Source: Psammoneis japonica
Taxonomy: Eukaryota
Assembly: GCA_008632985.1 (NCBI GenBank)
Contig: QPGO01000045.1
Coordinates: forward strand, 62,001-126,000
Length of the DNA: 64,000 nucleotides
Direction: 5' to 3'
Below the pieces are notes generated by a model. It saw only the letters and a program-made list of their open reading frames with translations. It was not told the origin of the DNA and ran no database searches. Positions 1 to 64,000 of this stretch are shown here, one piece after another (position 1 is the first letter of the stretch; the number at the start of each line of letters is the position of its first letter). The translations under genes and the position numbers were made by a program.

Positions 1-3000
1 ATCCAACCAACAAGGTCAAGCTCATCTCTGGCTCCACCAAAATGCTGCAAGCCTCTGTGAGTCTTTGATTGAGCCTCGCCCCATTCTTTGAAAGGGGGTG
101 AGAGACCTCATTGGTGTGTTGGACTCAATGGAGCTCATCACTTGGGCTCAGCAGATTGGCTGCATGTGCCAAAAGGTTTGCTTTGGAGTCTGGATTTCAT
201 GACTGAAAATTCTGGTTCAAGCCATCCCTGCACCTTGGCAGCCATTTCCAGCCCTGGCAGAGTGTTCTTCAACTCCACACTCTGCATCAAAGCATTGAAA
301 TCTTCCAACATGGCCATGTTTCACATGGAATGACAAGTGCAATTTTTGCACAAGTTGCCATGGCAGTGTGCTGTGTGGTTGTTTTTGGCAACTTTTTTTA
401 AGTTTGTGATTGCAGCAGTGGCACCAATTGACAACATGTGAAAAGGACATGATCAATGTGTGTCACAAAGCGCCAAAATGATGCACACTTTTTCCTGTTG
501 AAATGGCCCTGTCATGCTGCACTCAAGATCTTTTTCTGTCTTCTTGTTGCACTGCAGAAAGTCTGTAAAATGTCATGGCTTTTGTTCAAAATTTATCCGC
601 ACTGGATCAGATCCCTGTGTTCTTGACAAGGGCCGGTTGATTGTGGTTGAAGAGCCTTTCACAATTGTTGTGACATGTGAAGCAGGAAACAACACTGAAT
701 GAAAATTGTTCTTGCAGTGCATGTCATCTTAACAAGATGATCTTTGTGCACACCAAGAGTGATTTCAACATGACTCAGTTTTTGTTTGCAATCAATGTGG
801 CAGACAAAGCAGGAAACAATGGCAAACAAACCTTGTGACTTGCAAGGCTGTGTGCTGTTCACACAATCTGATTCTTGCACGCCACAATTTGTTTTTTTGG
901 CACTGAGTCTGCTTTTGCTCCCTGTTTTTTCTTGTTCTTTCCTCCTTGCTTTGTTGGCTCTTCTGCCAGTGCTGCCATTGCCCTTTGCTGTCTGCACATG
1001 ACAAGCCATCATCAGACATCTCTTGAGCCAGAGAGCCAGTGCTGAGTTCCTCCATCACCGGTGCACCATGATGAGAAAATCAATGTTTTTGTTGAACAAC
1101 CACTTCCCACCTTGTTCATTGGGAAAGACACCTCCATTGTTTGTTGATTGAGGCTCTTGATTGCTGCCAGGAAGCAACAAAAAGGAGAGACAAGTGTGAG
1201 GGATTGTCATCAAGAAGGTGTGGGGGGACATGAATCTGTTGGTGCTTGAGCAAAGGAAATTGTTGAGAGGTCCTGGCACATCCAAAGAGGAGCATGAGGC
1301 AAATTGTCACTTGAGGAGCTGACAGGGGAGGGAGGTGCATTGCACAGGCCAAAATGGAAGAAAGAAAAGAGTGCTGAGGACACCATTGAAAATGTCTGCA
1401 GAGAGCACACTGGCCATTGTTGTCAGACATCTGACCAGGAGGACAGAGTGGGTTGCATTGCAACAGGGATGTGCCATTGTCGTCAGTGCATGACATTGGA
1501 GGATGAGTTGTGCAGTGTCCAATGGGAAAAAAGGACAAATGCAGCAGAGCAGAAATGGAGCAAAACAAAGGCAGAAAACTGAAGGGTGGAAAAAAGCAAA
1601 CAAATGAAGTTGTTGGCAAGTTTGACATTTGGACAGAATGAACATCATCATTCATGAGTTAAAAGCCAGCATGAGACAAAATTTGCATTTGTGCAAATTG
1701 AGTGTTGTGGTCACAATCATCAGCACAAATGTGAAAATTGTGACAATTGGTCAGTGCTCTTCTGATGGTCAAGCATGGAAACATGTCACAAACTAAAGTC
1801 AGACTGTGAGGCAGCTAAATCAGATCCTTGCAACACATCAACACCTGTGTAGACTGGTGCAAATGTGGTGGACACAATGCCGTTGTTGTTCTGTTGAGAT
1901 GGCTTTTAGAGCAGAGTGTTGAAATGGCTGAAGACAAGGTTGCAAGAACTTTGCATTTTTGACAACAATTGCTGAAGTCACCAATGATGAGTGCAACATT
2001 TTTGCACTGGAAAATGACAAGGGATGAGCAGCACCTGCAAACTGACAAAAATGACTTGGCTCTGATGGCTTTGTTTTTGTCACGACAAATCAGAAATTTG
2101 GTGCCAGTGTGGGGGCAGTCATTGTCATGTTGGTCATTTGCTTCCCTTTGCTGTTTGTCACATTGTGGTTCTGGGCAATGTTTGTGCTCTTTTCACCTGG
2201 CTCTGGAACTTCTGTGATGGAATCTCATGTGGAGCGCTGCTTGCTTCATGCTGGTGACATCCATCATGGAGGCAAAGCATGGGGCTTCAAAGTGACTTTG
2301 GATTGTGGATTCCATGTTTTTCACCAACCTGTCTCAGACCCATTTCCCCCCTCCTTTTGTCTTGCCACCAGGAAACCAGCTCCTTTTCTCTCTCACTCTC
2401 ACACCATGTGAGAGAGCCAGGCATCCAGCAGCCACAACAAGGTTGGTGCATCATGCAAAACTCAGCTTGCAGCCAGCTGACCCCCAGCAGGAAACAAGAT
2501 GCTGTGAGCTGGTGCAATTCTGCACTTCCAACTCCATTGAAAAAAGTCAGCTTCTCTGCTTCAGGCTGCCCCTCCTCTGCTGCTTGTTGTTTTCTTGCTG
2601 GAAAGCTTGAGCATCACACACACCTTTGCCAGAAAAAAAGACACACTGGGGCCAGCAACAAACAGTTTGTTTGCATGGTCTTGACCACTTCTGTGGGCTT
2701 GTCATGTTGAAAGAGCAGCTGTGGTTGGTGCCAACAGAGGGGCAGCTCATCTTTGTTCTTTTTCTCAGCAGTTTTGCACAAAGGAGGTCAGACAGGCAGG
2801 CAGCCACTTGCTCTCATTTGCAGCAGTTGAAAAAGAAAACAGTTGCTTTTCTTTCTCTGGTTTGTCTGCCCACAATGTGCAGAGAGCTGCACACTCCCAC
2901 AGCACAGACGTGATGAACACCACCCTCTGGGGCCAAGAAGAGAGAGACTGGCTCAGATGCAGCAGTGGCGGTGGTGCACAACTTCCTGTGCTGCTGTTCT

Positions 3001-3190
3001 CCATGTGCAAGTCATGCAGGCGCCCCACCCAGAGCAGTGAGAGCACCGGCAGAGCACACCGCATGATGCTGGCAGCTGCCTGGAGCTAGCCACCGGCAGC
3101 AGAGGCCCTGCTGGATGGAGCTGCTCTCTGCGCCAGCACTGGCAACGGTGGAGTGCATGCAGCAGCAGAGAGATGGGCGACAGACAACAC
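1..3190. mobile_element. Hypermutated (CpG- and TpA-depleted) repeat/TE-derived block, family not identifiable
   Basis: Almost no CG or TA dinucleotides and a strong TG/CA excess. ORFs are short, Cys/His-rich and almost Tyr-free. Composition matches the recognisable TE blocks elsewhere in the window. Confidence 0.55.
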
Positions 3191-8432: not shown

Positions 8433-8866
8433 GGTCACGAAGCAAGATAACGTACGAAACCGTTATACAAAAGTCTGCAGCTCAACTAGAGTGCTAACTA
8501 GTTTTTTGGGGACAGAAAGAAACAACGCTACAATAGCAGCAACATCAACACTGTGGCCGCGTTGATGCTGCGCCGCGACAACAACCTTCGCAATTCGATC
8601 GCAACCTACCGGTAAGCACGTGTTATGAGTACGGGGCCGCACGTAGCGAATCTCTGGTACTGAAAAGAAGTAGAAATTCTTGCCGTTGATATGCAGTAGA
8701 ATTGTTCGGCCAGCCCCGTAGCGTCATTATGCATAAATGTACCCATCTTTGAGGATGGGTATGATCAAGTAGCCGGCCCCGTACTGTCTACGTACTCGTA
8801 GAAATCGTGTGGCCCCGCACAAAAAGCTCCCCTTTACCAAATTTCTACTGAAGCGCTACGGGCGTC

Positions 8867-9016
8867 GTAGAAAGCCCGTAGGGAGCTACATGGCACTATC
8901 AAAATTTAAGTACCCATGTAGAAAGCCCGTAGGGACCTACATTGCACTATCAAAATTTAAGTACCTCCGTTGAAAGCCCGTAGGGATCTACAGTGCACTA
9001 TCAAAATTTATGTGCC
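8867..9016 (+). repeat. Tandem repeat, ~3 x 51 bp (GTAGAAAGCCCGTAGGGAnCTACAnnGCACTATCAAAATTTAAGTACC)
   Basis: Units start at 8867, 8918 and 8969 and differ by a few substitutions. Confidence 0.9.
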
Positions 9017-9048
9017 TTGGAGAGTGGAGAGCTGCCGCAGATGAGAGG

Positions 9049-9946
9049 ATGGCGACTGGCGACACACAACACAAAAAACACCATGGCGTCGTCCACAGAC
9101 GATCTCGTCCAAGACCTCCCAAGCCGGGAGTGGTCCAAGACGGATGGGACGATGACGTAGATGACTTGCTTTCCACCAATAACGACAACAATGGCGACGA
9201 CGACGACGATGCATGGTCGTTTGATGACGACAGTCTCTTGACCGAGAATACAGTAACAATCAAAGCAGAAGCAGCAGTTATCAACCTACAACACCTTCTG
9301 AGAAACAAAACGATACTGCGACTAGGGCCCTACACAACATAACAACGATAATGACAATTGGTCCTTTCATGACGACGACCTGTTGAATACACCGAAACAG
9401 TCACCAATGAAAAACGAGATTAAAAATACTCCAGACGACTTGGCAAGACAATTGACCGGATACGTACAATCCCTTCCGTATGTGCTGTCGTCGATGAATG
9501 CCTTACTCGAGGCGGAATACAACACACCCGAGCATGCTGCGGAATTGCGGAACTCTTTCAGTACTATCAAGAACAACCACAGCTACAAGCTACAAGCGTA
9601 TTCACTGGAAACGGAATTACCGCGTATTTTCAAGGGCAACATGTCTCTGTGGTATTCCGCCATTATTGTCATTGTGCTCCAGCTCTTCACAACCTACACC
9701 CCCGGTTTGAACGACACCATCTTTGGCATGTCCGGTATGGACGGAACCCAGTGGGGTATTACCATTTTGATGGCGGTTTCCGTCTTTTTGATCATGGAGG
9801 CCGAGAAAGCGCTCCGCCGTCGCCTCAAGGCCCAGGGTTCGGATACGGACGATCGCGAGGAGTGGATCTTTGATGAGCATGTTGAGCCTGCCCCGCAGGG
9901 CACCGAGCTTCTTCCAAAGGGAGCTTCCTTTGCTCAACTTGGCTGA
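9049..9946 (+). pseudogene. Chimeric ORF(s): acidic unknown N-terminal part joined at ~9623 to the C-terminal fragment of a P-type cation-transporting ATPase
   Basis: 'IFKGNMSLWYSAIIVIVLQLFTTYTPGLNDTIFGMSGMDGTQWGITILMAVSVFLIMEAEKALRR' matches the last two TM helices of type II P-ATPases. No upstream ATPase domains are present. Codon usage changes abruptly at the junction. Confidence 0.7.
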
Positions 9947-10298
9947 GTTGGACAGATAGAGTCCAGCTTGCGTATACTTTCAACGCCATTTTCAGCTGGG
10001 GACCTATCTGTCTCCAAGTACATGTGTATGTGTGTTGGTGTGCTTGCCATGATATTCAGAGAAAGAATAGCTTGACAATGTTGTAAATAATAATCAAGCT
10101 TGAAGTATGTGAAGTACGTTCTAACCAACAGCTTTTCATTTGTCCACTTAATGAGGTATCATATGAGTCGTAGACCGTTCGCTCCTAGCTCCTATCCCGC
10201 ACGAATGTTGTCAAGCAGGAACTTGGCTTAAGCTCTAGCTTTCGTGCTTTTAAGTAAAACAAACAGGAACATAATGAAAAGTTTGAAAGAGTCTTTTA

Positions 10299-12470
10299 CT
10301 GGCCATTTGTTGGGCAATGATGCCGAGACCATTTGGCCTGAGTTGTTGTGACAGCAGAAGTTGCAGGACGACAAACGACAACACACGTCGGAAGCACAGC
10401 AGTTCAAATCATCACCTGTCGGTGTCGCAACAGTTGATCACGTCATGAGTCTCCGAAATGACATTGAGATTGGCGCTGAGGAACGCCAAACGGTGTTTTG
10501 GTCAGGTTTTGACAGAAAAAAAAACGTTTTCCGGTTTTGTGTTCTCTGGGACTGCGCAGAAACCACGCAGCCGCCAGCACGCGAATCATCATGGCTCCAC
10601 GCTTTCCACTTTCGCATTCCATCTCACAAAACGGACAACTCATCTTTTGTTGTCAGCATCAAGCATCAACCATGTCGATCTCCCTCATGATCTTTGTTGT
10701 TCTCTTTGCTGGTGTGCAGTTTTCCCGCCATTTTTTGGAGTTTTCGACGAAAAACCAAAACAACTGACAAAAACAGAAAACCGAAAATTCGACGAAGAAG
10801 CAAACACAGCCTCAAGTTTCAAGTTCGTGGAGCAAGGAGCAACATGCCGACAGCACGACCGCACATCACATGACAGCCAGATGAGAGCAAAATGTCTTGC
10901 ATCAACAATGCCAAGCTAGCTTGTGTTGAGCACTCGGTTGTTGCACTCCTCCTCATTTGGCTCTGGGCAGCTTGGGGTTCTCTCACACCACATGCAGCAG
11001 CCGTGCGCTGGCTCCATTTGCGTGAAAAGCCAAAGTCTTGCTGCAAAAATGTGGGTGACGACAATTGGCAAGTGTGGGTGAGCAGCAACACTCATTTGAC
11101 AAATGACAACAGAGTCCTCTTCTTGGTGCTGCAGCAGCTCGGCACACCCACATTGTGAGCTCAGCTTTGTTGTTTGCCCTTTCCAGAGCTGAAGAAAAAC
11201 ACCATCAGCCAGGAACAGTCTGTCCTTGCTTGTGCAGCATGATGGACAGACCCAGCCTTGTGCCCTGTGTATGTGCTAGGCGCTGAAAAGAAGATGTGTT
11301 ACGACTTTGTCGTTGTGAAAATTATGAGCTAGTTTAGAGTAGAGAAAATGGGATCGTGCGAATAGGGAATCTTGCCAAATCCCTATTCGTTCGCATTTGG
11401 ATCGTATCAAATCGATCGTGCGTTCGCATTATGGATCGTGCGAATCAAGCCATCACGCGCTATGCACGAGTGATGTCATCGTGTGGAATCACGCTACCAT
11501 CGTGGGCCAGACGACGGGCTAGTGTGCTTCACACGGATGCTCTCTTAGCATCCTTCTGGAATTGCCCAAGACCTAGAGCCACGCCTTCCTGTGGTCGTGC
11601 TTCCCAGGTGCGCGTTAACAATGCTACGTTGCCACGTACAAGAGGCTCATGCACGGTCTCGCCGTGTTGTCCAGCAGCGAGGCATGCTGCACTTGCTTTT
11701 GCAAAAAGAGTGCTTGCTTTGATGCTGATTTTGGTGCCCTTCACCAGCCCTGGTGTTCTCTGTTGGGGCCAGGCTTGCACAAATTGTGCTGGACTCATTT
11801 GACTGGCACACACTGCCAGCTGCAAAGCTGCAAGCTCAAACATGTGTTGTGAGCACCTTTGCGACCTTTGTTCTTGTGCTTGTTGTTTGTCTTTGTTTGC
11901 CAAGTGAAAAGCCTGTCATTTTTTGCCTTTGTCAAAACAGCGGTCATCTGCAGCATTCCAACAGCTGCAGCTCAACCTTGTCATTGATTGGCACTCATGT
12001 TCAATGTGCTGTCATTGTCATTTCAACTCACAGAAATCACAAAATCTTCTGCCAATGGCCAGGCGATGACTCTTTGGATGATGGTGCAAGATGTCAGCAG
12101 CAAAGAGACTGCCAGTTTTGTGCTGCACATGTTTTTCCTTCTCTCAGAGATTGCACTCTGTGTTTTGCTGGCTGTTGCACATTGACAAATGGCAACTTGC
12201 ATGCACTGCTCCTGAATGCTGAATTCTTTGTGCTGTCAAGATGGGTTTGCACAATGAAAAATGTGGGCCACCCAAAACATGTTGCTTTTTGCTTTGAAGC
12301 CCACATGCACAGACAGCCCTTGCATTGTTCAAGAAGCTCTTCAGCATCTCTCTGCTCTCACTCACCTGATTCATTGTGTTTCAAGTGTGTCTTTGTGGAA
12401 GAGCATGCTGATGCCAGCACATCATGCACCCTTTTCTTGCAGGGACTCAATGAACTTTCCATTCTTTAAT
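10299..12470. mobile_element. TpA-depleted repeat-derived block, interrupted by an unmutated island at ~11270-11640
   Basis: No TA between 10299 and 10916. TA and CG are both depleted at ~11650-12470. No recognisable domain. Confidence 0.5.
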
Positions 12471-12474
12471 CCAA

Positions 12475-12900
12475 TGATGAGGTCAAGGATGGCTTTGGAG
12501 CCTCGGAATGCTTTGGAAGATGAGGCTGTTGTTCCAGATGCCAGAGCCTTTGAGGTTGCCACATCGCTGCACTTGACACAAAAAGTCTTGCCCGCCATCA
12601 AGGGCAAGTCAAAATTGGGAAACCAAGCCTTTGTCAATGCTCTTTTGATTGTCCCCAAGATGCTCAATGGAAATTCTGGACTTGATGTCCAAGGCACCCT
12701 CTTTTATTTGCAAGAAGAATGGCAATTGTCCGAAATGATGGTGGGTCTATAGACGTCAAGACGGGGAACCAGTCTTGCCAGCAAATGAAGGAGTCTGAGA
12801 CAATGCCCTTAAATCTGTCCACCACATTGGCCAGTCAACTGTTGCTGGTGGACGAAGTCATGCGCACTGGAAAACAAATGGGACAGCAACCCCAATTGAC
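12475..12900 (+). pseudogene. CCT6: Degenerate C-terminal fragment of chaperonin CCT-zeta (T-complex protein 1 subunit 6)
   Basis: 'NALEDEAVVPDARAFEVA', 'KGKSKLGNQAFVNALLIVPKML..NSGLDVQ' and 'ASQLLLVDEVMRTG' follow the CCT6 C-terminus. The fragment is frameshifted and has no N-terminal part. Confidence 0.8.
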
Positions 12901-13005
12901 GAGTAAACCAATAAATGCTAAAAGGAAAGAATCCAACCTGCTGCTGTGCACCTACAAAAAATAATGCAACCAAGTTGCCATCCGTTCGGTTCAATGGTCT
13001 TACGT

Positions 13006-13956
13006 TTACCCAGCCGCTGTTTCATTTTCTGTTATTCGCACCAGCCTCTCAAGAGGAAACGCTCGACCCATTCGCCTTCCAATGTCCATGATTCCATCTG
13101 CTGTAATGTGATTAGCACAGGGACCAGCTTCAGGGGGTTGAACGCCAAACTTTGGATCCAACTCATCCACACAAAGACAGCCGGCGACGGCTCCAGATCC
13201 TGCATCTTTCAATGCTTGATTTACAGTCTTTACTTTCTTTCCTTTCCATACTACAGGACTTACAACAATCGGCAACGAAGAATCGTCGGCAGTATAGCCG
13301 AATTCATGAAGATCGTGGCGCACATGCGTAGAATAGCGCTGAAAATTAGCAAGGTAGGCATTGGCATCTTTCGCCTTAGATGAGTCACTTTCACCTTGAA
13401 GCCAAAACATTCCCACCAAAGGTCGTAAGACAGTTCTATGCTCTTCGGGCGAGCTGGTTGGTTCGGATTGTCCATCATTCTGAAGTGTGTTCAAGGATTC
13501 CTTGCAAAATCGTATAAAGTCGCCATAGTATCCCCTCTTCTTTGGTGAAGTTTTGTCCGGCTCATTTTCTCCATTGGTATTATCGCCATCGTTTTGGATT
13601 TTAGTAGTTTCTGGATTCCAGTCGGTATGGAGATTGATGCTTCCCATTGCAAACTTGAGCATGTAAAATCTTCGGATTCCAATGTCTCCGAGCCGCAATC
13701 CAAGAGTTTCAGCCAATCCGAATTCAGGTCCAAAACAATCCATTTCAAGTCCTGGAGAATACTGACACTGCAGCTTAGTCCAGCCTTCACTAATTGATCC
13801 TGTTCCAAAATTCAGGTCGTTGTTCCAACAGAATTGGACGTCTACCTTTTGAGATAGTGAAGTTAGTGATTCTGGAGGTAGATCATTGCCGTTGCATCTG
13901 CCTGCCATGTTTGATTGCCCAGCCAAGAGGAAAACAGGTTCAATCACAACCATCAT
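13006..13956 (-). CDS. SASA (sialate O-acetylesterase / CE6-like) SGNH hydrolase
   Basis: 'FLLAGQSNMAG', 'FGPE', 'FWLQGESD' and a C-terminal His ('ANHITADG'). Confidence 0.85.
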   Translation of the reverse strand: MMVVIEPVFLLAGQSNMAGRCNGNDLPPESLTSLSQKVDVQFCWNNDLNFGTGSISEGWTKLQCQYSPGLEMDCFGPEFGLAETLGLRLGDIGIRRFYMLKFAMGSINLHTDWNPETTKIQNDGDNTNGENEPDKTSPKKRGYYGDFIRFCKESLNTLQNDGQSEPTSSPEEHRTVLRPLVGMFWLQGESDSSKAKDANAYLANFQRYSTHVRHDLHEFGYTADDSSLPIVVSPVVWKGKKVKTVNQALKDAGSGAVAGCLCVDELDPKFGVQPPEAGPCANHITADGIMDIGRRMGRAFPLERLVRITENETAAG

Positions 13957-14466
13957 GAAGAGCCAAAGGTTATGAAAGGTACGTATGCAGAAATATGACA
14001 CAAGATGAGAGGGAGGTGATGACATTGAAACCGTGAGACGTGAGACGCCGAGACGCCGCGTGAGACGTGCAAAGGCATTTTGATCGAACCAGTCGATTTT
14101 CAGCAATCTCAAGAAGGTCGAGAGCGGAGAGCACAATAGAATCACCCACCGTTTCCAATGAAGTAATCAACATAAGTGTCATCTTAGTCATCACTAAGAG
14201 ATAAGATCACCATTTTCTCTTCTGGCAAGCGGCAAGTAGACTGGTGTGACAGCAGATTTTCCTCTCTATGAGATCAAAACCATACTACCGGTATGTGGTT
14301 TGGTTTGGTGTGCTATCTGCAGAAAGATACCATTATTAAATACCGGCTTTCGCCGTAGATTTTGTGCACGTAGGTTTTCTACCAGTATCTACAGACGAGC
14401 GCCATGGTCGTTCCCCGTGGTGCATCCATCAACCATCAAGCGACCAAAAACAGCAGCCGCGAGACC

Positions 14467-17400
14467 ATGGCGAATTTCAGCCGTCGCCATGAAAGGCGCA
14501 GAAGACGACGACAATGGATAACAGTGACATTTGTGTCGAGTCTTGTGGTTGCTGGTGCTTTTTCACCGAGCATCTCCTCTCCGGCACTGACGAGTCCGTT
14601 GTTTCGGCATGTTTGCAAAACACCCCAACGAGAAACGTCCTGCTTTCGCATCTGGACGAGACTGAGACGAAGCAAGAGATCAAGTACGGCACGACACATG
14701 GTATTGAGAACACCCGAGAGTATCATTGAAGAGGCATCGACACAAAGTGAGTTGTAAACAGCAAAATCTGGATATGTTTTTTGATTCGCATACTGTTGTC
14801 TAAAACTCCATACTCCGCGTACTCTCTCGCTCTTGATTTTAGATTTACTGGACGATTTAATTGACGAGTCGGTACGAACGTCATCACGACGCCCCATCAT
14901 GATGCAGTTTGATCCGTCGAGTGGTTGGATATGGAGACGATGGTCCGGCACGGTGTTTAGTGAAACGTGGACGTCGTGCGTTCGCAACATGGTGTGGGCC
15001 ACTGTAGTTGCCTTTGTCTGCCATGCCGTTCCGGGAATACGAAAAGACGCATTTTCTAAATTTGATACACTGTGGGGACAATTGTTGTCTGTGACAACCT
15101 TTACACTGACATTCTTTTTGAATCAATCCTATGCGCTGTGGAGAAACTGTTATGGATACAGCCGTCGGTTGCAGGGACGGCTCAACGATTTGGGCATGAC
15201 GCTGGCGACACACGCCGCACGACAAACACCCGCCAACCCCAATGAGCCATCCACATACACACCGGCCAGTCGACAAATGCTGGAACTCATTAGTCGGTAC
15301 ATTCGTGTTTTCAATCTATTGACGTACGCATCCTTCACGCGGTCCCATCGTCCAATTTTGACTCCACGAGGCATGAGGCGATTGGTCGAGAGAGGCATTT
15401 TGACTCCACAAGAACGACAAGTCCTGGTGGATGCCCAAGTGCCGGCGACACAACGGCATAATGCTGTCTTGATTTGGATTACGCGCTTGTTTGTTGAGGG
15501 ACGTCGTGAGGGACACTTTTTGGGGGAAGCCGGATTTGAAGAACAATTCCTTGAAAAGTTTCACGTCATTCGTGCCCAGTACGGAGCCATTGGCGATGAG
15601 TTACAGGGGCGCATGCCACTGGCATACGCTCACATTGTACAGGTGTTGGTGGACGTCGTCTTGTGGTTGTACCCTTTCATGGCTTTTAGCATTGGCATGA
15701 CGCCACTGTTGGGAGCGCTGGGGACGGGATTTCTGACAATGTCTTATCAGGGTTTGTTTGATTTGGCCAAGCAATTCTTGGACCCCTATGACAATGAGAG
15801 TTTTGGCAAGGGCGAAGACCCGCTGTCGGTTGATACCCTGATTGCCGAAACTAATGCTGGTTCTGTTCGATGGATGAACGGGTTTGAGCAGCAGCCCTTT
15901 TCGTCCCAGCGCATCCGGGACGGAGAACTCTTTGACTACCAATTGCCGGTACGCGGATACTCTGTGGAAGAGCTTGTGCAGATGGAGGCGGAAAAGCTGA
16001 AAAGGGAACAAGAAGCACAAGAGAAACGGGAGCGGGAAGAAGCCGAGCGAATGGAGCGAGAAGCCGCTGAATTGGAACAGGAAGCTGCCGAACTAGAGGA
16101 AGCTCAACAGATAGACGAAGAGGCAGAGGAAGAAAGACAAGAAGAAGTTGAAGACACTAGTTCTGATAAAGAAGCGCAAGAGGAGGAGCCTGTCATTGAT
16201 GATGTTGGTGAATCCGTCAATGGAGAAGAGACGGAACACATCGTGGAGGAAACGAGGACGAGCGCCGATGAGTCGAAAGAGGTAGTGAGCGTAAATGGCG
16301 AGAATGAAAAAGAGGAAGAGGACGGCCTGGTCGAAAGTGATACTCGTGTTCACACCGTTACATCAATCGAGGGAGGCCTACCTGTTACTCTTGATAGAGC
16401 GGAACCTGACGTTGCTGAAGCTGAGATGGAGCCTACCGAAGATGAAAGTGACAAAGATTCGGATCCAGAGCTCGAACCGGAGAGTGTTCAAAATTCTACT
16501 AGAGATGTCGCTGTTCCCTCAGCATCAGAAAAGAGCAAAGGAATCGAACGGGGCGTCAATGGCTCTCGTGAAGTGAAGTCGGAGACAACAATCGAGGGTG
16601 CGAACATCGAGCAAGACGACGACAACGACGAAAATAGTTTCCTCGACGATGCGTACGATGAGTCAATGCTGTTAGACCCGGATGATTTGGAATGGTTTGA
16701 TGAAGTTGGGCCTGATGGTCAAGAGTATCGACTAAGTCAAATGATGGCCGACGAGGTTTGGGAGGAAGAGAAAATGTATGCCGAAGAAATGAAAAAGCAA
16801 AAGGCCCCAATGACTTTTGAAGAGTACACGCAAAAAGCAGCGGAAATAATGGAGCGAGTGGAAAACGAATTGATCGAAACAGAGGAAATCCTAAAGGAAT
16901 CTCCCGGGGCTCAGGCAGCCTTGGAAGCAAAGGAAAGGTCTTCCGAGGAGGGTGGATCATCTGCTGATGGGCGGGTGCTCGAATCACCGTCTCAACCAAA
17001 ACGAGCCGACGGTAAATCAGAAGACAAGAAAGAACCACTTTACTATGATCAGACGAAGCTTGATCCAATATCGCAGCTTTGGGGCTTACGGCCTGATGAT
17101 CCGGGAGCGCTGGGGATTAAGCCGCAGAAACAGGGTAAGATGCTGAATGAAGATGTGTCATTTGAGGGCATTTCGCAGCTATGGGGGGATCCAGTTGAGC
17201 CTTTATCCAAACCTTCGTCTTCAGAAGCACCAGAAATGCTTAAAACGGGAAATTTTGAAAGCATTTCTCAGCTATGGGGCCAAGATGACCGCACCGTGGA
17301 TGAGGAAGACGTTTTGCCGATCTGGAAAAGAAGTGATGACGGAGGGGAAGGAGGCATTCTGAATGCATTACCACCAGATATGAACTCCCCCGCTTACGAT

Positions 17401-17694
17401 ACTTTGGACTGGTTTGACGAAGTTGGTCCTGATGGCCAAGAATACAGGCTAAGTCAGATGCTAGCTGATGAGGTCTGGGAAGAGGAATTGGAGCCGCAAA
17501 TGATGGATGCGCCGGTAACTCTGGAAGAATACTCCAAACAAATTGCTGAGCTACAGGAAGCGGCAGAGGATGAGTTGAAAGAGACTGAGGCAATTCTCAA
17601 CATGCCACCCGGATCCGAAAATTTCGAGCTAGACAAAGAGGAAGCAGCTTCTCCATCATCGCCGCCGGACAGTGAACTACCACCAGCACAGTAA
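14467..17694 (+). CDS. Bestrophin-family channel, likely plastid-targeted, with very long acidic repeat-containing C-terminus; 2 exons (intron 14747-14842)
   Basis: Signal-like 'TFVSSLVVAGAFSPS'. Bestrophin-like core 'TTFTLTFFLNQSYALW', 'RMPLAYAHIVQVLVD', 'FLDPYDNE'. A GTGAGT...TTTAG intron restores the frame. Confidence 0.85.
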
Positions 17695-17929
17695 TAAGAA
17701 CAAAAAGTTCGAAGTGCGGACGACGGTCGATCATGCTGACGTCACGGATTTTCTTGTCGTCGCTATCGACATACACCATGACTGTCAAAGCGTTTGTTTC
17801 AAAGCGTTCGACACGTCGTCCCTCACTGTGTACTTGATATTGCAGAAATAGATGCGGCCATCTCTCCATACAATTATCCATATTGTGGTACCTTGGATTT
17901 GACTGTTGACGTGTTGGTCTCATTCGACA

Positions 17930-19354
17930 ATGAGTTTTCCGTCTGCCAGCGATCGAAGCGAAGTCGTAAACGACGAGAATGTTGATACGGAGTGGGGAAG
18001 AGCCATACGACAGGATGGTGCATCGTTAAACCCCGAAACCCATGTTTCTTGTCCTTCTCGGATTGAAGAGGATGTTGACGTTGCAATAGTCGGTGGAGGA
18101 TTGTGCGGTCTCGCTGCCGCCATTGGATTGAATCGACACGGAATCAATGCTAAAGTTTACGAGAAAGCACCGCAGCTTCGAAGCTCGAGTCAAGGCATTC
18201 TGTCAATTCAACCCAATGGTATGGAAGCTTTAGAAGAACTTCATCCAGATATTCCCGAGATGGTGAAGTCAGTTGGATGTGAGCGATGGCAACTTGTGCA
18301 AACCACGATAAGTTCGAACGGAACGTCAGAGGAAAAAACTACCAACACAGGAAAAGAAGCTCTCGAAAAATTTGGCAGACTTAAGGTTGCGCTGACATGG
18401 CATAACATGCAAAAAGTTCTTGCGTCACTTCTTCCGCCCAATGTCGTCGTGACGAATCGATCCTTAGTTTCCTTTGTGGAAGAAGATGACTCGGTGTTGT
18501 TGTATTTTCATGGTGAGAAAGACGCTCCAGTAGTTCGAGCGAAGGTAGTACTAGGATGCGATGGTGTTTTCTCTGTGGTGAGACGAACAATTTTCCCAGA
18601 GGATCGCCCTATTTACTTTGGACAGTTGAATTGGGCTTCGATCATAGATACGGACCAGCTGCCGCCGGGCATTCATCCTCCAAATGCCGTTCACTACTTC
18701 TCTTACAATGGCGAACCCCGCTGGATGTCCATGTTTAGTGATGGTGGCTCAGGTAAGACCTTTTGGCAGTTTCGAGTGGCTGACCCCGTAAAGGCGATGT
18801 CGTTATCAGCGAGCAAGGGACGCGGGGGACTAGGCCTCAGGGGTGTCAAGAAATCGATACTTCCGGTCGCCGCACCAAGCCAGGAGGTTCGGGCCGCGAT
18901 GGAACGTATCCCGGAAGAGCAAATATTTGAGCGATCTATTGTAGGTCGCATGCCTCTCCCGAATTGGCGAAGTAATGGTGGTAGAGTTGCCCTGGTAGGG
19001 GATTCGGCCCACGGCATGCACCCCAATATCGCTCAGGGAGCCAACAATGCGTTTGTGAGCGCTGCAGCCGTCGTCCGAGCCACGGTGTCTCACAAGAAAC
19101 AAAAGAGTGACTGGAAGTCAGCATTGCATGAATATGAACGAGAAAGAAAGCCTCGTGCGGATATCGTCCAAACGTTTGCAAACGCGATGGGCGTCACTCA
19201 GAGCACCGGGAAAGATTTTGTCGCACCCGAAGTTATCCGAGACGCTCTGGATTGGATCGTTGGAGGTGAATCTGTCGATAAAGCTCCTTCTGAGCTAGTT
19301 GAGCTACCAAGAACGTTTCACCCGCTGAAAGAACCTGGAGTCTCGCTATTGTAA
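17930..19354 (+). CDS. FAD-dependent monooxygenase (class A flavoprotein; zeaxanthin epoxidase/UbiH-like family)
   Basis: GxGxxG 'VAIVGGGLCGL', DG motif 'LGCDGVFSVVR', GD motif 'LVGDSAHGMHPNIAQGAN'. Confidence 0.9.
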   Translation: MSFPSASDRSEVVNDENVDTEWGRAIRQDGASLNPETHVSCPSRIEEDVDVAIVGGGLCGLAAAIGLNRHGINAKVYEKAPQLRSSSQGILSIQPNGMEALEELHPDIPEMVKSVGCERWQLVQTTISSNGTSEEKTTNTGKEALEKFGRLKVALTWHNMQKVLASLLPPNVVVTNRSLVSFVEEDDSVLLYFHGEKDAPVVRAKVVLGCDGVFSVVRRTIFPEDRPIYFGQLNWASIIDTDQLPPGIHPPNAVHYFSYNGEPRWMSMFSDGGSGKTFWQFRVADPVKAMSLSASKGRGGLGLRGVKKSILPVAAPSQEVRAAMERIPEEQIFERSIVGRMPLPNWRSNGGRVALVGDSAHGMHPNIAQGANNAFVSAAAVVRATVSHKKQKSDWKSALHEYERERKPRADIVQTFANAMGVTQSTGKDFVAPEVIRDALDWIVGGESVDKAPSELVELPRTFHPLKEPGVSLL

Positions 19355-19719
19355 GGGTATTCAAGAAGTACACTATCACTAAGCCTAGGTAGAGTTCAAC
19401 GTGTTTGCGGCTTTTCGCTATCACGAGCCCACCAATCACCAGTAGCTTCTTGGCACTCTAGCTCGGTTCTTCTTCGTTGACCGACGCAACTACAGCATGT
19501 CTCTCCAATAAAGCTTTGTAAGAGAGCGGATAACTGCTGTATTTAGCTTTCAATTTTGCGACTTCGTTGACAATGGGCTCCATACGGTGGCAACTGTCAA
19601 TTCCTTGATGATCATTGTACCGTTCGAGATCCCAGCGCGTCCGTGTGAAGAAACCCTCTGGATCAGGCATCAGTCAATTTTCTAGGTTCGATTCTATTCT
19701 AGCCGTGGTCGTTGTCATT

Positions 19720-21410
19720 CTTGCAACACAATTGCGTCAGATGAACTCGTTGTGGAAATGGCCACATTGCACCTGCCAAGGTGGGAAGACATTTGTTGGG
19801 TGCAAAGGGCTCTCGCACTAACTTCACTCCTTCCAACAGACCAACCTTCACCGATGCACAAAGACCTGTTTCTGTCATTGTACCTTGTGCAAATTCTCCC
19901 TTGAATGATTCCACCTCCAAAGATCGACAAATGACAAACCTGTCAATTGATTGCCCCACCTCAGCATCAAAGAAACATCACTCTGAACATGAGAGGTCTG
20001 TCTGTGAGAAGCAGACTTTTTGTCTGGCATCGGGTCACCATCACACTTTCTGACAGGAAAGGAAAAACAAAATCTTTTTTCAAAAGTGCTGCTGCACTTC
20101 CACCCAGCAACTCCGGCAACAATCTGGCCCACACCCCAAGCCCACACACAGTGTGCCACCCCTGCCAAACTCTCAAGAACCACAAGGAAACAAAACATCA
20201 ACCACACTGTTGCTCTGGTGGGCCACATTTCAGAGGCTGTGGTCACACACAACCACATTCCAGGAGAGCAAGACATCATCATGCACAGCGCTGGACAAAG
20301 GAAAAGATCAAAACTGACGCTGATTTGCAGAGGAGATGCAGAGTTTGCTTGAAAGCTTGAAACTTGCCAAATTTGACCAAAAAACCAGGTGTCCAGTGAA
20401 CTGGTCAAGATTTTGCTTGCTTGAGGTGGCCGGCACTTGCCATCCTTGGGAGACATCATCTCTCAACAAGAAAAGACAAAGCCCTGATGTCACCAGAGTC
20501 ACTGTTTGCCACATGAAACTTGGCTTTGTTGGCCTTGCAGAGCACCAACTGTGCTTCTGAGCTTGATTTTGTTTGGCTTGCATTTGACATTTCCTCCATT
20601 GACACCATGACAAAAATGTCTTGGTTTTCTTCCTCCTGGCTTGCAGAGTTGGCTTGACAGTGCTGCACACCCAAATCGACACAGCAGCATGGACGCTGCT
20701 TGAAAGCCAGTTTTGGCAACTTGACTGTGCAATCATGCACCAACAGCCTGGCTCAGAGTTGCGTGAAGCTTGACCCTGCAAGCTGTGTCTTCTTGAGAGC
20801 ACGCTGACACACACAAATGGCATCAAGAGCAAGCCAAGCCACCGCTTTTCTTGCGTTGTCTGGCAAGGACCCCCCAACAACATGATGGGCTCTTGTCCAG
20901 AAAACCCTGAAAAATGAAATCTCTCAAGTGCTGCAGTTGTTCAATGGTGGATCCTAAGTGGCATGTGCCTGCACCACATCATCATTGGCGACAATGCCAG
21001 TTGCCCAAGAGGACATGCCTCCTTTTTCTCACAGCAGCCGTGCCCAGCGCACTTTGCAAAGCACATCGATGCTGTTGCAAGATGAGTTCCATTCAGAGAA
21101 AGCATTGCCAGTCCATCCTGAAAAATTGCTTCACTGTGTTTTGTGCCAAAGCACAGGCTCTGTGGTGAAGTGAAAAGAAGGTTTTCTGCAGCTCAGCCGC
21201 CACGCACGAGAGACACCCGCGCCTGCTGTCTCGCAGCCCCTCCCCACAGCTCTCTTGCAGCAATTGGGCAACACAAATCATTCCACTCTCTTGTTGCTCC
21301 AGCATGCCCAAGGCTTCTGAGTTGCATCATCTATTGGTTCTTGAGACGAGACATCATCATGGCCATCATCTTGTGCAATTGCGTTTCGTTGACCTTTGAC
21401 AGATCTGCCA
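19720..21410. other. Hypermutated block, possibly an eroded minus-strand gene or TE
   Basis: Depleted in both CG and TA. An unmutated minus-strand ORF end lies directly adjacent at 19458-19670. Confidence 0.45.
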
Positions 21411-21591
21411 TTGGTTTATGAGGGACGAATTTTCGCGCGAAACGGTTGGTCTTCGCGCGGGTTATTTGCGCGCACACCAATCCCCAACGCACGCATCCAA
21501 CACCACGCATGCACAATGCTCAATGAATGCACAGCGCTGTTCGAGGTTCGAAGAGTGAGTCGTTCGGTGTCTCTGTTGGAGAAGGTCCACC

Positions 21592-22649
21592 ATGACGGGT
21601 CAAAAACGCTTTTCGCTTGTTCTTGCAGTCCATGCACTGATCATAGTTGAGTTGGTAGGGGCAAGACCGGGAGAAAGCACAATCCCGAGGTCGTCCAATC
21701 ATCGGTTGGCCTCCGTCGACGATTCCTCGCACACTCATCCTCCGTGGAACCCATCGGAACAAATCGACGATGATGGCTTCTTGAAAGAGAGCTACTGGCG
21801 CTTGCCGGGTGAATGGGAGAAGGAGGCAGACATTGGAGGAAAGCACGGGCCCAAGTCGCGTCGTTTCAAGCAATTTCCTGAAATCCCAGTCACTGTTCGA
21901 CAAGTTCCCGGTGACGGCAACTGTCTCTTTCATTCCATAGCGACATGCCTCGCCTTTGTTATTAACGGAACACACGTTTCCATGAAAGACACGGAACGCT
22001 TACGGGAAACTTCGGCTTGTCTTCGCCAAAAGGCGGTGGAGTGTCTAGAACGATCTCCGCGTCGTCTCCTCTTTTTGCAGGGCAACGAGTATCTTCGAGC
22101 TAGAGACTTGGTAGATGCTGCTGCGGCGCAATACGACTTGACGGGAGAACGGTATTGTGAACTCATGAAAAAGGAATCCTATTGGGGTGGAGGTCCAGAA
22201 ATTGTAGCTCTTTGCAATGTCTTGAAAAGACCGATTCACGTGTATGAGCTTGCGACACACCCCAAAACAATGTCAAGGCGCAGCAGTTTCGTTTGAGACG
22301 AATGGCGTGCTTTGGATCTCCAAAGTATGATCGACGAGAGCCACTTTGCATTTTATCAGCCGATTCTAGGTTTCCGGATGTTCCTCCTGGGAAGCAGCTG
22401 GCCAGCGGCAATCATTTCTTGGCCATGTTTCCGGCCTCTGTTGGAAAGAGTCGTGTTATTCGCGGTGGGGGGAGTTTGCGGCGGAAGCAGACACAAAACG
22501 AACAACAAGAAGAGGAACAAAGGGAACGTGTTAAGGATAAAGCACGCCGGATCAAGGATTCTGCGACGAAAACTTTATTTTCTTCGCAGAACGTTCTAAG
22601 CTCCGCATTTCAAAAATTCTCGAGCAAATGGTTGCCCAAAGGAATATGA
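21592..22649 (+). CDS. OTU-like cysteine protease with signal-like N-terminus; apparent 1-nt frameshift near 22260
   Basis: 'VPGDGNCLFHSI', 'WGGGPEIVAL', and the catalytic 'GNHF' in the following frame. Confidence 0.85.
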
Positions 22650-23560: not shown

Positions 23561-23859
23561 AGTGTGGCTCCGGTATGTATCTATCTCGCGCGATGTCGAT
23601 GGTCAGCTCAGAGCCAAAATTCAAGAATGACTCTGAAGACTGCATGGTGTTAAATAAGAATGTATCCATTCCACGATTACTGTACAATCAACTCCACGAT
23701 TAGACTTCAAGATCCGTCTATCTCACGCACGGTCTTCGTGTGTGCACAATCGACTCCACGACACCGGTGAGCAACTGGACACTTCAAATCAAAGAAGATC
23801 TGTCTCTCAAGGTCTGTGTTGCGCACTCTGCTCTCTACCGGTAGAGTAGAGAGGGCCCC

Positions 23860-25640: not shown

Positions 25641-25741
25641 AGTTCAAGAACTGTGGGCAAGCAATTTTGAATTGATGTAACGTGCAGGCTATGGATTGAT
25701 CGGTAAGCTTAAAGCCGCAGGATCAATGCGCTAGTCCTCGG

Positions 25742-39935: not shown

Positions 39936-40077
39936 GCACTGCTTGCACCCACACCCAGTTCTTGCCCTCAGGGGTCTTCTCTGCTGCTGCTGCTGAGCAG
40001 CAGCAGGCACTGCTTGCACCCATGCCCAGTTCTTGCCCTCAGGGGTCTTCTCTGCTGCTGCTGCTGAGCAGCAGCAG
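39936..40077 (+). repeat. Tandem duplication, 2 x 71 bp, each ending in a (CTG)n-A-(GCA)n inverted motif
   Basis: Units 39936-40006 and 40007-40077 differ only at one CA/TG dinucleotide. Confidence 0.9.
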
Positions 40078-52036: not shown

Positions 52037-53023
52037 CTAATCTTTCATAAAGAGTTGCGGGTTCCCGAGAACAAAGTAAAACATCAAGTCGGGCGAATCC
52101 TTGATTCTTCTTGTTGAGAGAAGATGCGTCCATACATACGGATGAACATTAGCTTCCGTCAAGAGTCTCCTGCCGGCCAAGTTTAATCTAGTGTAGAACA
52201 GCTTTTCCTGTTGGAGGGATGGGTTCAGCAGCGTGCCCAGAAGAAGAGATGTGACGACACTGTTTTGTCGAAGTCCATCTTGAACGAGTGCACGCTGGCC
52301 GTCCTTGCCAAATCGATTTTCGCACAACATGAGTTGCTTGAGGGTTCGATTGAACTTGAGATTGTTTGCCAGAACCTTGGCACCCTCATCGCCAATTCTA
52401 TTTCCGTTCAGAGCGAGTTCTGTCATCGACTTGTTTTGTGCAATACCCTCTGCAATGCCCGTGATACCCTCATCACCCACTTCACACCACGCCAAGTAAA
52501 ACACTTTGAGCGTTCTTGTTGCTTTGAAAGCATTTCCAAAAGCCACTGCACCGTCGTTTCCAATGGGATTATTGCTTAGGTACAACACTTCAAGACAAGA
52601 AGCGTCTCTTTCCAAGCTTCTGGCAAGGGCCATCGCACCGGCATTGTTAATCTCGTTATCGGTAAGAACAAGCTTCTTGAGTCCCGTCTGGCCCACCAGC
52701 GAGAGTGCATCAGTAGCAGCATCTTCATCTTCTCCGATGCGATTATCACGAAGCCCAACCTTCTCTACAGAAGTTCCATAATGTATGAGCGTATTGAATA
52801 AGGCAGTTGCACCCACAGCGCTAATGTCGTTGGAGCACAAAATCAGACTCTTGACGCGACTATTGGTTCTCAGGGCTCGCGATAGAGCAACCACGCCGTT
52901 GTCGCCCATTTTCTTCCCTGTGTCATAACCTGCCAACTTCAACTCTTCTGGCAAGGATGCATCATTCTGGGATATTCTCTCACACAAGCGGCTTAGCGAC
53001 GGAGAGATACGGGTGGACGCCAT
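52037..53023 (-). CDS. RNI-like leucine-rich repeat protein (NLRC3/LRRC74-like)
   Basis: 28-aa repeats of the form 'LxxLxLxxNxIGxxGAxALA' throughout. Confidence 0.88.
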   Translation of the reverse strand: MASTRISPSLSRLCERISQNDASLPEELKLAGYDTGKKMGDNGVVALSRALRTNSRVKSLILCSNDISAVGATALFNTLIHYGTSVEKVGLRDNRIGEDEDAATDALSLVGQTGLKKLVLTDNEINNAGAMALARSLERDASCLEVLYLSNNPIGNDGAVAFGNAFKATRTLKVFYLAWCEVGDEGITGIAEGIAQNKSMTELALNGNRIGDEGAKVLANNLKFNRTLKQLMLCENRFGKDGQRALVQDGLRQNSVVTSLLLGTLLNPSLQQEKLFYTRLNLAGRRLLTEANVHPYVWTHLLSTRRIKDSPDLMFYFVLGNPQLFMKD

Positions 53024-53289
53024 TGTGCACCGCCGCTGCGGTAAAGGCTCGAGCGTTTTCTGGTTGTTGTTGTTTTTTTTTTTTGCAGAATGGCTTTTCG
53101 CGATATCATACGTCTGTCACGAGCGAGTTCCAGTCCCGAGTAATGGCACGTCATGTTTGCTGCAAGGGAAAACGCTGGTGCATTATCCCTTGTTTGTTGG
53201 CTCCATCGCTGCTCTACTAGAGTGCCTACATCGAGAGGAGGTGCCTCTTTGATGTAATGTTTAGCTCTTGTGGGATAAAAGCTAGCATC

Positions 53290-58779: not shown

Positions 58780-59769
58780 AGAGTCAGCATCAACGGCAAT
58801 AACGATGGTGTTTCATATATTTTAGTATTTACTGATGGAATCTCATCAGATATATTTTAAAAATTACATTCAATGCACTAACAAATAACAATTGAATTCA
58901 ATCTATCTGATAATCATCAGAAGATGTATCAGGTTGGTGTCATCGCTTAAAAGGTAAGTAGCCATTTGACAACCAATGCGGTGCTGTACAACGAACATCT
59001 GGCCTAGGCTGAAGTTCCACATCCTCTCTCAAACCCCTTGCAAATAAACTTGAGAGCAGCACACAACCCACCTGCATGTGGGGCAAGGTCACCATTCCAC
59101 TTCATTTCATGGCATTGATGTCTGCGTGTGCCGGCAACACAATGCCAGAAGAAGAAGAGCCAGCCATCATCTGTGCCTGGATCTTGGCATTCACTTTCGT
59201 CTTGTCCCTCGGCAAGTCAAGTTTGTGCTTGTGGATGACAAATCTCACAATTGTCAATGAAGGTTGGAAGCAGTTTGGATCAAATGATTGTCAAGGACAC
59301 TGAAAATGACATGTCTTTGCTTCCCATTTGGTGAGGACTGAGCTTTCAGTGTGGGCTGGGCACCAGAGCCGTCTTGTGTCACAACAGGTTTGATGATGAA
59401 GGCTGTGAAAGGAGCACTCAAAGAACCTTTGGGGGACAGAACCCAAAACTTAACTAGCCCACAACTTGCAAAGAACAACAGTTGGTTGGTTCCTGACTGT
59501 CACATCCATTGAAGTTCTTTTGGTGATGTCTGACAAGGGATGCCTTTTTGCTCGGGACAAAAAGCGCAAAAATCTCTCAAAATTTGTCAAACGCACAGTT
59601 GCTCATGCACCAAACTTGCCCCATCAACTCACAATCATCTTCTTCTTAATGCTTGGATGCTCAAACTCAGTGCCTGTGCTGTGATGGATGCAGTGTCTTG
59701 TTGAGAAGACAAAGGATTGAATGGAGAGCGATGCCCCAGGCACACTTGTGCCAAGTTCTGAGAGAACTG

Positions 59770-60650
59770 TGCAGTGCCCTCTGCAAAATGCCCATGATGC
59801 CATCATCACCCACTTCACACCACACCAAGCAAAAAACTTTGTTGAGCACTCTTGCTTGCAGCTTTGAAAGCATTTCCAAAAGCCACTGCACTGTGGGGTT
59901 GCTGCTTGGGTGCAACACTTCAAGACAAGCAATGTTTCTTTCCAAGCTTCTGGTGGCAAGGGCCATTGCACTGGCATTGTTGTCAATTTTTTCATTGTCA
60001 GGGAGAACAAGCTTCTTGAGTCTCGTCTGGCCCACCAGCAAGAGTGTGAGAGTGCACCACCACCAGCATTTTTTATCTCATCCAGTGCAATTGTCATGAA
60101 GCCCAAGAACCTTCTCTGCAGCAGTTTTGAAATGGGTGAGTGTGTTGAATGAGTCAGTGTCACACCCACAGCACTGGTGTTGTTGGAGCACAAAATCAGA
60201 CTCTTGATGTGACTTTGTGTTTTCAGGGCTTGCAAAAGGGCAACCATGCCATTGTTGCCCATCTTCTTGCCCATGTGATGTCCTGCCAACTTCAGCTCTT
60301 CTGGCAAGCATGTGCCTTTTTGGGACAATCTCTCACACAAGTGGCTCAGCAACAGAGAGATGTGGGTGGACGTCATTGTGCACTGGTGTGATGGCTGTGC
60401 ATTTTCTTTTGTTTGCAGAGTGTTTTAATGATCCATCCATCACAATTCCAGTCCCAAGTGCATCAAGTTTGCCAGCTCAATCACAACTCTGGAGTGCCCA
60501 CATTGAGAGAAGGTGCCTCTTTGATGTTGCAGTCAGCTCTTGTGGGGCAAAAGCTGGTGTCACCTGCAAGTGATGACACAACAAGGATCCTGTGGCATCT
60601 TGGAAAATGTGGATGATCAATGTTGTGCATCTTGAGATCTCAGTCCTGCT
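59770..60650 (-). pseudogene. Hypermutated partial copy of the LRR gene (52037-53023) and its upstream region
   Basis: Aligns with ~52440-53400 (e.g. GCTTTGAAAGCATTTCCAAAAGCCACTGCA, TTGGAGCACAAAATCAGACTCTTGA). It carries frameshifts and CG/TA->TG/CA changes. Confidence 0.92.
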
Positions 60651-63940: not shown

Positions 63941-64000
63941 GAAACACCACCTGAGCACCATTGATTCTTTCCAAGTCCCTCTTCACATCACTCAGTTTTC

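Follow-up and report, generated by a model that had tools for sequence, protein, structure and literature searches.

The subject of this study is a 618-bp tract at positions 10299 to 10916 of a 64-kb window, the window being the whole stretch of DNA analyzed (64,000 nucleotides of contig QPGO01000045.1, positions 62,001 to 126,000). The tract lacks the dinucleotide TA (TpA) completely and retains CG (CpG) at a nearly normal frequency. It forms the left portion of a repeat relic, is non-coding, and lies just downstream of a P-type ATPase gene. The features around it are as follows, with the strand where one was assigned.

9383..9946, + strand: 3′ end of a P-type cation ATPase gene (Pfam Cation_ATPase_C, E = 1.1e-12), the left neighbor of the tract, with TA and CG at background
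9947..10298: TA-rich spacer, with 15 to 17 TA per 200 bp up to 10297 and then directly zero
10299..10800: core of the tract, TA-free and CpG-normal (TA, 0 against 18.8 expected; CG, 29 against 30.4), multicopy up to about 10680
10801..11288: continuation of the tract, TA-poor and with CpG at about 37% (TA, 3 against 18.3 expected; CG, 11 against 29.6), single copy
11289..11665: insertion of a highly abundant repeat, normal in composition (17 TA, 31 CG)
11666..12750: block poor in TA and CG, with a chaperonin fragment (in 11666-12500: TA, 1 against 31.2 expected; CG, 4 against 50.6)
12504..12746, + strand: TCP-1/cpn60 chaperonin fragment (Pfam Cpn60_TCP1, E = 1.1e-9), spanning only profile positions 363-442 of 490

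Across the relic, TA is gone throughout, and CG falls stepwise from normal to about 37% and then to about 8%. The chaperonin fragment stands isolated where the depleted block ends on the right, and its other exons were not found upstream. A 51-bp tandem repeat (2.8 copies, 8866-9010) lies upstream of the ATPase C terminus.

Positions 9001 to 29000 were compared with contigs of two runs (X1 and X2) from one public study, only contigs at least 88% alike being placed. The left edge of the tract is an abrupt step, and it coincides with the points where X2 contigs part from the window sequence (10257 and 10291) and where an X1 joint begins (10292). This coincidence argues for a structural junction, i.e., the end of a discrete piece rather than a decaying fringe.

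Composition of the tract

Direct counting gave 0 TA and 33 CG within the tract (CpG observed/expected ratio [o/e], 0.95), thus bearing out the preliminary description of this DNA, made from the letters alone, which had reported zero TA and about 33 CpG. The flanking TA dinucleotides start at 10297 and 10917, 620 bp apart. Background densities came from six gene-like intervals of the window totaling 31,356 bp, with 0.0374 TA per bp (o/e, 0.56) and 0.0606 CG per bp (o/e, 1.04). At this rate, 23.1 TA would be expected in the tract, and the probability of zero TA, a calculation that the preliminary description had proposed, is 9e-11 (Poisson). The longest gap without TA in the background is 205 bp, and mononucleotide shuffles of the tract (n = 20,000) contained on average 42 TA and never fewer than 24.

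The dinucleotides that remain fit a conversion. CG numbers 33 against 37.5 expected at the background rate, whereas CA and TG together number 119 against about 87 (o/e, 1.53 over the 618 bp). This surplus, about 32, is roughly the size of the shortfalls in TA (23) and CG (4.5) combined. By length, the tract is only tied for 14th among the TA-free runs of the window, the longest of which extends over 1180 bp, so it stands out solely because its CG is retained. CpG depletion accompanied by a gain of TpG and CpA characterizes the neighboring blocks but not the tract, as its CpG o/e of 0.95 indicates. Within the tract, CA (73) outnumbers TG (46). Skews between CA and TG in 500-bp bins are similar in size in blocks and genes, being modest in most bins and near even in most blocks; since the skew in blocks is no larger than that in genes, we claim no strand bias for the tract.

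No coding content was recognized in the tract. A Pfam search of stop-to-stop frames of at least 35 amino acids in 10200-13000 returned nothing below E = 0.01 except the TCP-1 fragment. Long open reading frames (ORFs) do occur (e.g., 10449-10916), because DNA without TA can carry TGA stops only, and their translations look non-coding. Self-comparison of the window with blastn found no relatives of the tract within it. A transition-tolerant search of the window, with purines and pyrimidines collapsed, yielded a longest match of 30, which is at chance level. Rfam gave 0 matches at gathering score over the whole window, and a degenerate primer-binding-site motif matched three times in the window against 1.9 expected, with no match in the tract.

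Depleted blocks and traces of conversion

With the 64-kb window as the scope for features, a map in 1-kb windows set gene regions (TA o/e, about 0.5; CG o/e, about 1.0) apart from seven blocks with a TA o/e of 0.01 to 0.07, a CG o/e of 0.02 to 0.2, and a CA+TG o/e of 1.7 to 2.0. These blocks, to which the conversion is confined, total 28,260 bp and retain TA and CG at 7.2% and 12.3% of gene-like density, respectively. Their GC content (0.44 to 0.53) is similar to that of the genes.

1-3046: depleted block
11655-12747: depleted block
19820-21197: depleted block
24201-25599: depleted block
26997-40200: largest depleted block, 13.2 kb, retrotransposon relics (TA 6.5% and CG 10.5% of background)
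53284-56428: depleted block
59006-64000: depleted block
30065-30682: RVT_1 relic (Pfam, E = 8e-7)
34829-35110: gag_pre-integrs relic (Pfam, E = 1e-5)

The recognized content of the blocks thus comprises the RVT_1 and gag_pre-integrs relics and also host gene copies (LRR and the TCP-1 fragment), whereas the tract itself has no recognizable content and is partly multicopy. Beyond RVT_1, gag_pre-integrs, and TCP-1, a Pfam search of 147 frames gave only four matches, each under the curated cutoff of its family and to families without an evident connection to this setting.

Conversion could be followed site by site in one pair of gene copies, over columns 40-690 of the 971 in the alignment, the poorly aligned ends having been left out.

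52437..53030, − strand: live LRR gene copy of normal composition, used as the reference for the spectrum (Pfam LRR_6 and related families on 52037-53023)
59768..60383, − strand: hypermutated LRR copy in a depleted block, 78% identical to 52437-53030

The 31 CG of the live copy appear in the block copy as TG (17 sites) or CA (12 sites) and are kept at 2 sites. The 24 TA read TG at 14 sites, CA at 4, and something else at 6; none is kept. The block copy also differs by indels and other substitutions. This LRR copy has been rewritten at nearly every CG and TA, and the process therefore hits duplicated host genes too and not mobile elements only. A control pair in normal sequence (22573-23504 and 25742-26669, 85% identical) kept 31 of 42 CG, 26 of 43 TA, and 74% of other dinucleotides. 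Within the 13-kb block, a direct repeat (27806-27972 and 32433-32598) shows six double differences of TG against CA in 166 aligned columns. Such double changes are expected if one ancestral dinucleotide was hit independently in each copy, which points to mutation in place. RNA-level A-to-I editing fixed by retrotransposition would leave clusters of A-to-G changes on one strand only of a retro-copied unit. This was not what we found, given both the TG (14) and CA (4) products in the LRR copy, the modest skew between CA and TG in most 500-bp bins, and the double changes made in place. The two units of the direct repeat are spaced 4627 bp apart and bracket the RVT_1 relic; they may be the two long terminal repeats of a dead retrotransposon.

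The 76 TA that survive in the blocks are distributed non-randomly by flanking bases, as seen from their survival relative to gene-like density.

TTAA: survival 0.59 (25 versus 47; Fisher P = 1e-14)
CTAA/TTAG: survival 0.20
GTAA/TTAC: survival 0.08
ATAA/TTAT: survival 0.08
CTAG: survival 0.05
CTAC/GTAG: survival 0.03
ATAG/CTAT: survival 0.02
GTAC: survival 0.01
ATAC/GTAT: survival 0 of 199
ATAT: survival 0 of 84

Surviving CG is less skewed by context, with GCGC at 0.375 and the others at 0.07 to 0.22.

The public runs provided a view of the same sequence and of its other copies. X1 is a DNA run with a single-copy word depth of about 63. Its contigs reproduce the depleted blocks and 10680-11288 at depths of 54 to 71 with 0 or 1 differences, a single contig of 10,973 bases covering 11666-22634, and this agreement indicates that the sequence of the depleted blocks is not an assembly artifact. 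Over 10680-11288, one X1 contig at depth 71 with 0 differences denotes a single copy. Farther left, X1 depth rises to 139-433 at variant sites between 10301 and 10654, which indicates roughly two to seven copies of the tract as far as about 10680.

Sequence context was classed for the 28 listed differences with X1 support, the 12 found in X2 only being left out. Fifteen exchange TA for CA or TG, 3 exchange CG for TG or CA, and 10 are of other kinds. Five of the listed differences fall inside the tract: 3 restore TA, 1 restores CG, and 1 is unrelated. In place of the TG or CA of the window, other copies show TA at 10301, at 10304 (share, 0.54), and at 10654 (share, 0.64). The six X1 contigs over 10477 (depth 412) all read C (CG), and the T of the window (TG) is absent from X1; this mismatch may have arisen from faulty assembly or polishing of a multicopy stretch, or it may mark a strain difference.

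The repeat inserted at 11289-11665 is far more abundant. The mean X1 word depth in the bin 11002-11668 is 40,638 versus 63, which implies a repeat present about 1000 times. All eight differences listed for it are exchanges of TA for CA or TG, and none is listed at its 31 CG sites. At seven of the eight sites the window has TA and other copies have CA or TG in 51 to 99% of the depth, and one site is reversed. This repeat holds short internal repeats (GGATCGTGCGAAT twice) and has no Pfam or Rfam match. A 19-mer taken from it recurred at four loci in metagenomes, which we rejected as chance matches (only 19 to 25 bases match, in ordinary composition).

X2, although labeled "DNA?", behaves like a transcriptome: one of its contigs joins 14746 to 14843, and X1 has no such joint. 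The intron thus revealed measures 96 bp (14747-14842, GT..AG). X2 does not cover the depleted blocks and has a word depth of 3 to 5 over the tract; its contig cover is not usable to rank expression.

Outside the blocks, the window holds long, intron-poor eukaryotic genes identified with Pfam: a queuine tRNA-ribosyltransferase, a FAD monooxygenase, a SulP/STAS transporter, a ubiquitin hydrolase, a hexokinase, an MRG protein, and an LRR protein, together with a metallophosphoesterase, an OTU protease, and the P-type ATPase C terminus. Among named proteins, the closest to the queuine tRNA-ribosyltransferase all come from diatoms (Chaetoceros tenuissimus at 68%, followed by Seminavis, Thalassiosira, Skeletonema, Cyclotella, and Epithemia), and no protein identical to it is on record. 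The gene regions are themselves low in TA (o/e, 0.56), with a CA+TG o/e of 1.13; the same process acting weakly across the genome, or else ordinary avoidance of TA, may be the cause. A 180-bp tandem repeat (2.4 copies, 41141-41573) lies inside an ORF without Pfam match (40912-42552).

TA loss, CG loss, and competing explanations

Loss of TA occurs without loss of CG, and the reverse was never seen. Among 213 non-overlapping 300-bp windows, 10 combined a TA level below 0.1 of background with a CG level of at least 0.3 (one of them, at 10501, with CG at 0.94), whereas none of the 213 combined CG below 0.1 with TA of at least 0.3. Likewise, a 200-bp sliding window located zero TA with at least 8 CG in four zones (10298-10916, 21021-21247, 24062-24271, and 52195-52398), and zones with zero CG and at least 5 TA were never found in the window. 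TA-poor sequence next to blocks was inspected at the following places.

21200..21940: second TA-poor, CpG-normal zone, lying next to a depleted block and reaching the OTU gene start (TA, 7 against 27.7 expected, P = 3e-6; CG, 50 against 44.9)
21592-22296, + strand: OTU protease gene (Pfam OTU, E = 6e-16); an X2 contig covers 21560-22640
2950-3190: fringe zone (TA, 1 against 9.0 expected; CG, 8 against 14.6)
21420-21640: fringe zone (TA, 1 against 8.3 expected; CG, 21 against 13.4)
56400-56610: fringe zone (TA, 1 against 7.9 expected; CG, 7 against 12.8)
40300-40425: fringe zone (TA, 2 against 4.7 expected, not significant)

The zone at 21200-21940 spans the promoter and the first approximately 115 codons of the OTU gene, and may represent collateral TA mutation of a live gene beside a block.

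These data bear on what the preliminary description had inferred. Its proposal that TA loss is not a mere by-product of CpG decay is upheld by the tract, where all TA is lost and CG is near intact, and by the 10 versus 0 windows out of 213; the 15 TA-type versus 3 CG-type changes among the 28 listed X1 differences likewise separate the two losses. Of the four fringe zones that it had named as TA-poor, three are nominally so and 40300-40425 is not. Its suggestion that the TA process spreads further holds locally, TA loss reaching more than 100 bp beyond CG loss at 4 of 12 block edges, but not overall, since the edges split evenly. That the TA process is faster than CpG decay is plausible; that the tract was recently silenced and caught early is uncertain, since its left part is multicopy with a mostly shared TA-free state, which comes near the refuting condition named in that description.

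We consider it probable that a TpA-specific transition process purged the tract and that CpG decay is a separate, second process in the same blocks. The first process would turn TA into TG or CA (A:T to G:C), having removed every TA of the tract, and the organism would apply it to kilobase-scale blocks of retrotransposon relics and dead gene copies. The second, from CG to TG or CA and presumably through deamination of 5-methylcytosine (5mC), would act in these same blocks. A candidate enzyme for the first is an ADAT2/TadA-type adenine deaminase working on DNA, by analogy with the proposal made for the chlorarachniophyte Bigelowiella natans. Silent chromatin may guide the targeting, and the two processes may differ in speed.

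Several points weigh against this interpretation or narrow its reach. CpG decay would so far have spared the first 500 bp of the tract, being slower or finding this segment unmethylated, two alternatives that are indistinguishable here. When TA and CG change points were placed separately at the 12 block edges, six offsets were positive and six negative, with a median of −4 bp, although spacers that are CG-poor and AT-rich by nature (9900-10300 and 58550-59000) confound at least two of the negative ones. Among the listed differences, only three sites have TA in other copies, with the left tract at two to seven times single-copy depth, and much of the TA loss may thus be inherited from the common ancestor of the copies. 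The absence of CG-type change in the abundant repeat holds for the listed differences only. X1 was possibly derived from the very sample that was assembled, in which case it confirms the sequence and is not independent biology. A per-strand flanking rule for the choice between TG and CA is not established, since among 23 sites of the LRR pair 8 agreed with it, 7 disagreed, and 2 were ties, and the flanking dependence is therefore given as an observation only. Finally, the window appears to be diatom nuclear DNA, as judged from the relatives of one protein.

The most serious competitor is spatial. A TA mutator aimed at a silent block could reach several hundred base pairs past CpG methylation, so that the tract would be an unmethylated flank and not a younger element. 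The zone at 21200-21940, with its 7 TA and 50 CG between a depleted block and the X2-covered 5′ part of the OTU gene, would fit such a flank; CG also declines stepwise along the tract toward the depleted block, and at the four edges mentioned the change point of TA is displaced outward from that of CG by more than 100 bp. We nevertheless regard this account as possible rather than probable. The even split of the 12 edges around −4 bp speaks against a general overreach, the left edge of the tract, which drops from 15-17 TA per 200 bp to none where the contigs diverge, better fits a discrete piece, and the abundant repeat between the tract and the depleted block retains 17 TA. An inherited state is rather unlikely: the repeat family might have become TA-free long ago and then multiplied, possibly being no longer a substrate, and the tract would be uninformative about rates. 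The raised X1 depth over 10301-10654 favors this, as do the listed tract differences, with only three restoring TA and 0 TG/CA doubles, i.e., copies that mostly share the TG or CA outcome. Yet the three TA-bearing variants indicate a process still active after the copies separated, and the case for inheritance draws on the listed differences and on contigs at least 88% alike.

A single process, with TA loss as a side effect of CpG methylation, its deamination, or its repair, would explain why both depletions share blocks over most of the window, with edges within about 130 bp. We judge it very improbable given complete TA loss with 29 of 30.4 expected CG over 10299-10800, a similar pattern at 21200-21940, and the TA signature of B. 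natans, which arises without C-to-T changes. Least credible of all is an artifact or chance origin of the tract, through wrong base calls at modified bases or through a run that lacks TA at random. Modified bases can give systematic errors in long-read assemblies, and at 10477 all X1 contigs have C where the window has T. The chance probability of 9e-11, the X1 contigs (word depth, 54 to 71) that match 10680-11288 and the depleted blocks with 0 or 1 differences, and the indels and other substitutions in the dead LRR copy all contradict an error or chance origin.

Under the preferred reading of a TpA-specific process alongside separate CpG decay, a broader generalization stands at about even odds: diatoms, and possibly many lineages of the stramenopile-alveolate-rhizarian (SAR) supergroup, may run a TpA-directed DNA hypermutation defense that precedes and is independent of CpG decay, purges repeats (with TTAA mostly spared), strikes duplicated host genes, and can spill into the 5′ ends of live genes, CpG-intact tracts being its early or methylation-free footprint. 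If this held genome-wide, a second and ecologically dominant algal lineage would possess a TA-specific mutator against silent DNA, making it a candidate for a widespread genome defense. Depletion of TA versus CG per repeat copy would then offer an inexpensive readout, from sequence alone, for ordering silencing events, and a tract that has lost TA and kept CG is the type of sequence suited to separating the two processes experimentally. In annotation, homology-based detection of transposons misses repeats whose every TA and CG has been altered, and DNA without TA, and hence without TAA and TAG stops, yields long spurious ORFs.

Comparison with known systems

Fungal repeat-induced point mutation (RIP) resembles the present case in that dense transitions inactivate repeats and gene duplicates, a host gene copy having been struck here. 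It runs the other way, however: RIP converts CpA to TpA (a gain of TA, G:C to A:T), whereas here TA is lost and A:T becomes G:C. Neither the gain of TpA nor the AT-rich product of RIP was seen, the GC content of the blocks remaining at 0.44 to 0.53. Diatom DNMT4 enzymes are related to the RIP factor RID and have no known function (PMC9998398).

Deamination of 5mC shares with the depleted blocks the change from CG to TG or CA (29 of 31 LRR sites) and the enrichment of CA and TG. It does not explain the tract, which has no CpG loss. To our knowledge, TA loss is not a consequence of 5mC. Methylated transposable elements (TEs) were reportedly described in diatoms by Traller and colleagues in 2016. 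The CG loss of the large blocks is attributed to a second process, and the occurrence of cytosine-methylated TEs in diatoms has been described (Hoguin et al. 2023, PMC9998398).

Adenine deaminases offer a chemical parallel, A becoming G after T (or U). ADAR-type A-to-I hyper-editing in animals prefers a 5′ U, and ADAT2/ADAT3 or TadA deaminate A34 beside U33 in tRNA. Those enzymes act on RNA, however, whereas here genomic DNA is altered in place and on both strands. A parallel to ADAR/ADAT-type deamination is also drawn in the discussion of the B. natans preprint (10.64898/2026.01.13.699255).

Within the library searched, a literature survey on TpA/CpG hypermutation, diatom hypermutation, RIP-like processes, and methylation returned that preprint as the only relevant work. 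By term look-up, the searched text of Maumus et al. 2009 (PMC2806351) and of PMC9998398 mentions no TpA-depletion signature for diatoms. In that preprint, 231 of 302 nuclear mutations in B. natans mutation-accumulation lines fell in two silent integrated viral regions (10.64898/2026.01.13.699255). There, 210 of 211 de novo changes were from TpA to TpG or CpA, with no C-to-T component and a rate of about 1000 times background, and the authors propose an ADAT2-like adenine deaminase (Mettrop et al. 2026, 10.64898/2026.01.13.699255). The words "CpG" and "diatom" occur 0 times in that main text (10.64898/2026.01.13.699255). From its figures (211 mutations, 6169 TpA, 3132 generations), we calculated a rate of about 1e-5 per TpA per generation; a comparable rate in the diatom, if it applied, would purge TA long before ordinary 5mC decay, which would fit the TA-first asymmetry.

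The two systems have in common the change of TpA to TpG or CpA, kilobase-scale silent regions, a decrease of TpA with an increase of CpA+TpG, and reverse-transcriptase domains among the targets. Here, TA gave way to TG or CA at 18 of 24 sites of the LRR pair with 0 kept, and TA depletion comes with a gain of CA and TG. The lack of a C-to-T component recurs in the tract (29 of 30.4 expected CG in 10299-10800) and not in the large blocks. The host is a diatom (a stramenopile) instead of a chlorarachniophyte (a rhizarian), and the targets are retrotransposon relics and host gene copies, viral genes not having been identified in the window. At 618 bp, the tract is also shorter than the 3-kb cluster definition given for B. 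natans. The block TA o/e of 0.01 to 0.07, which is near saturation, compares with the 0.45 reported for the nucleocytoplasmic large DNA virus (NCLDV) region of B. natans. Most blocks show CpG decay alongside TA loss, whereas the main text on B. natans does not mention CpG, and a flanking-base effect here largely spares TTAA, the sequence contexts of B. natans possibly being given in its supplements. Collectively, these features group the tract with TpA hypermutation of the B. natans type, now in a diatom, from which it is distinguished by near-saturation, accompanying CpG decay, and the sparing of TTAA.

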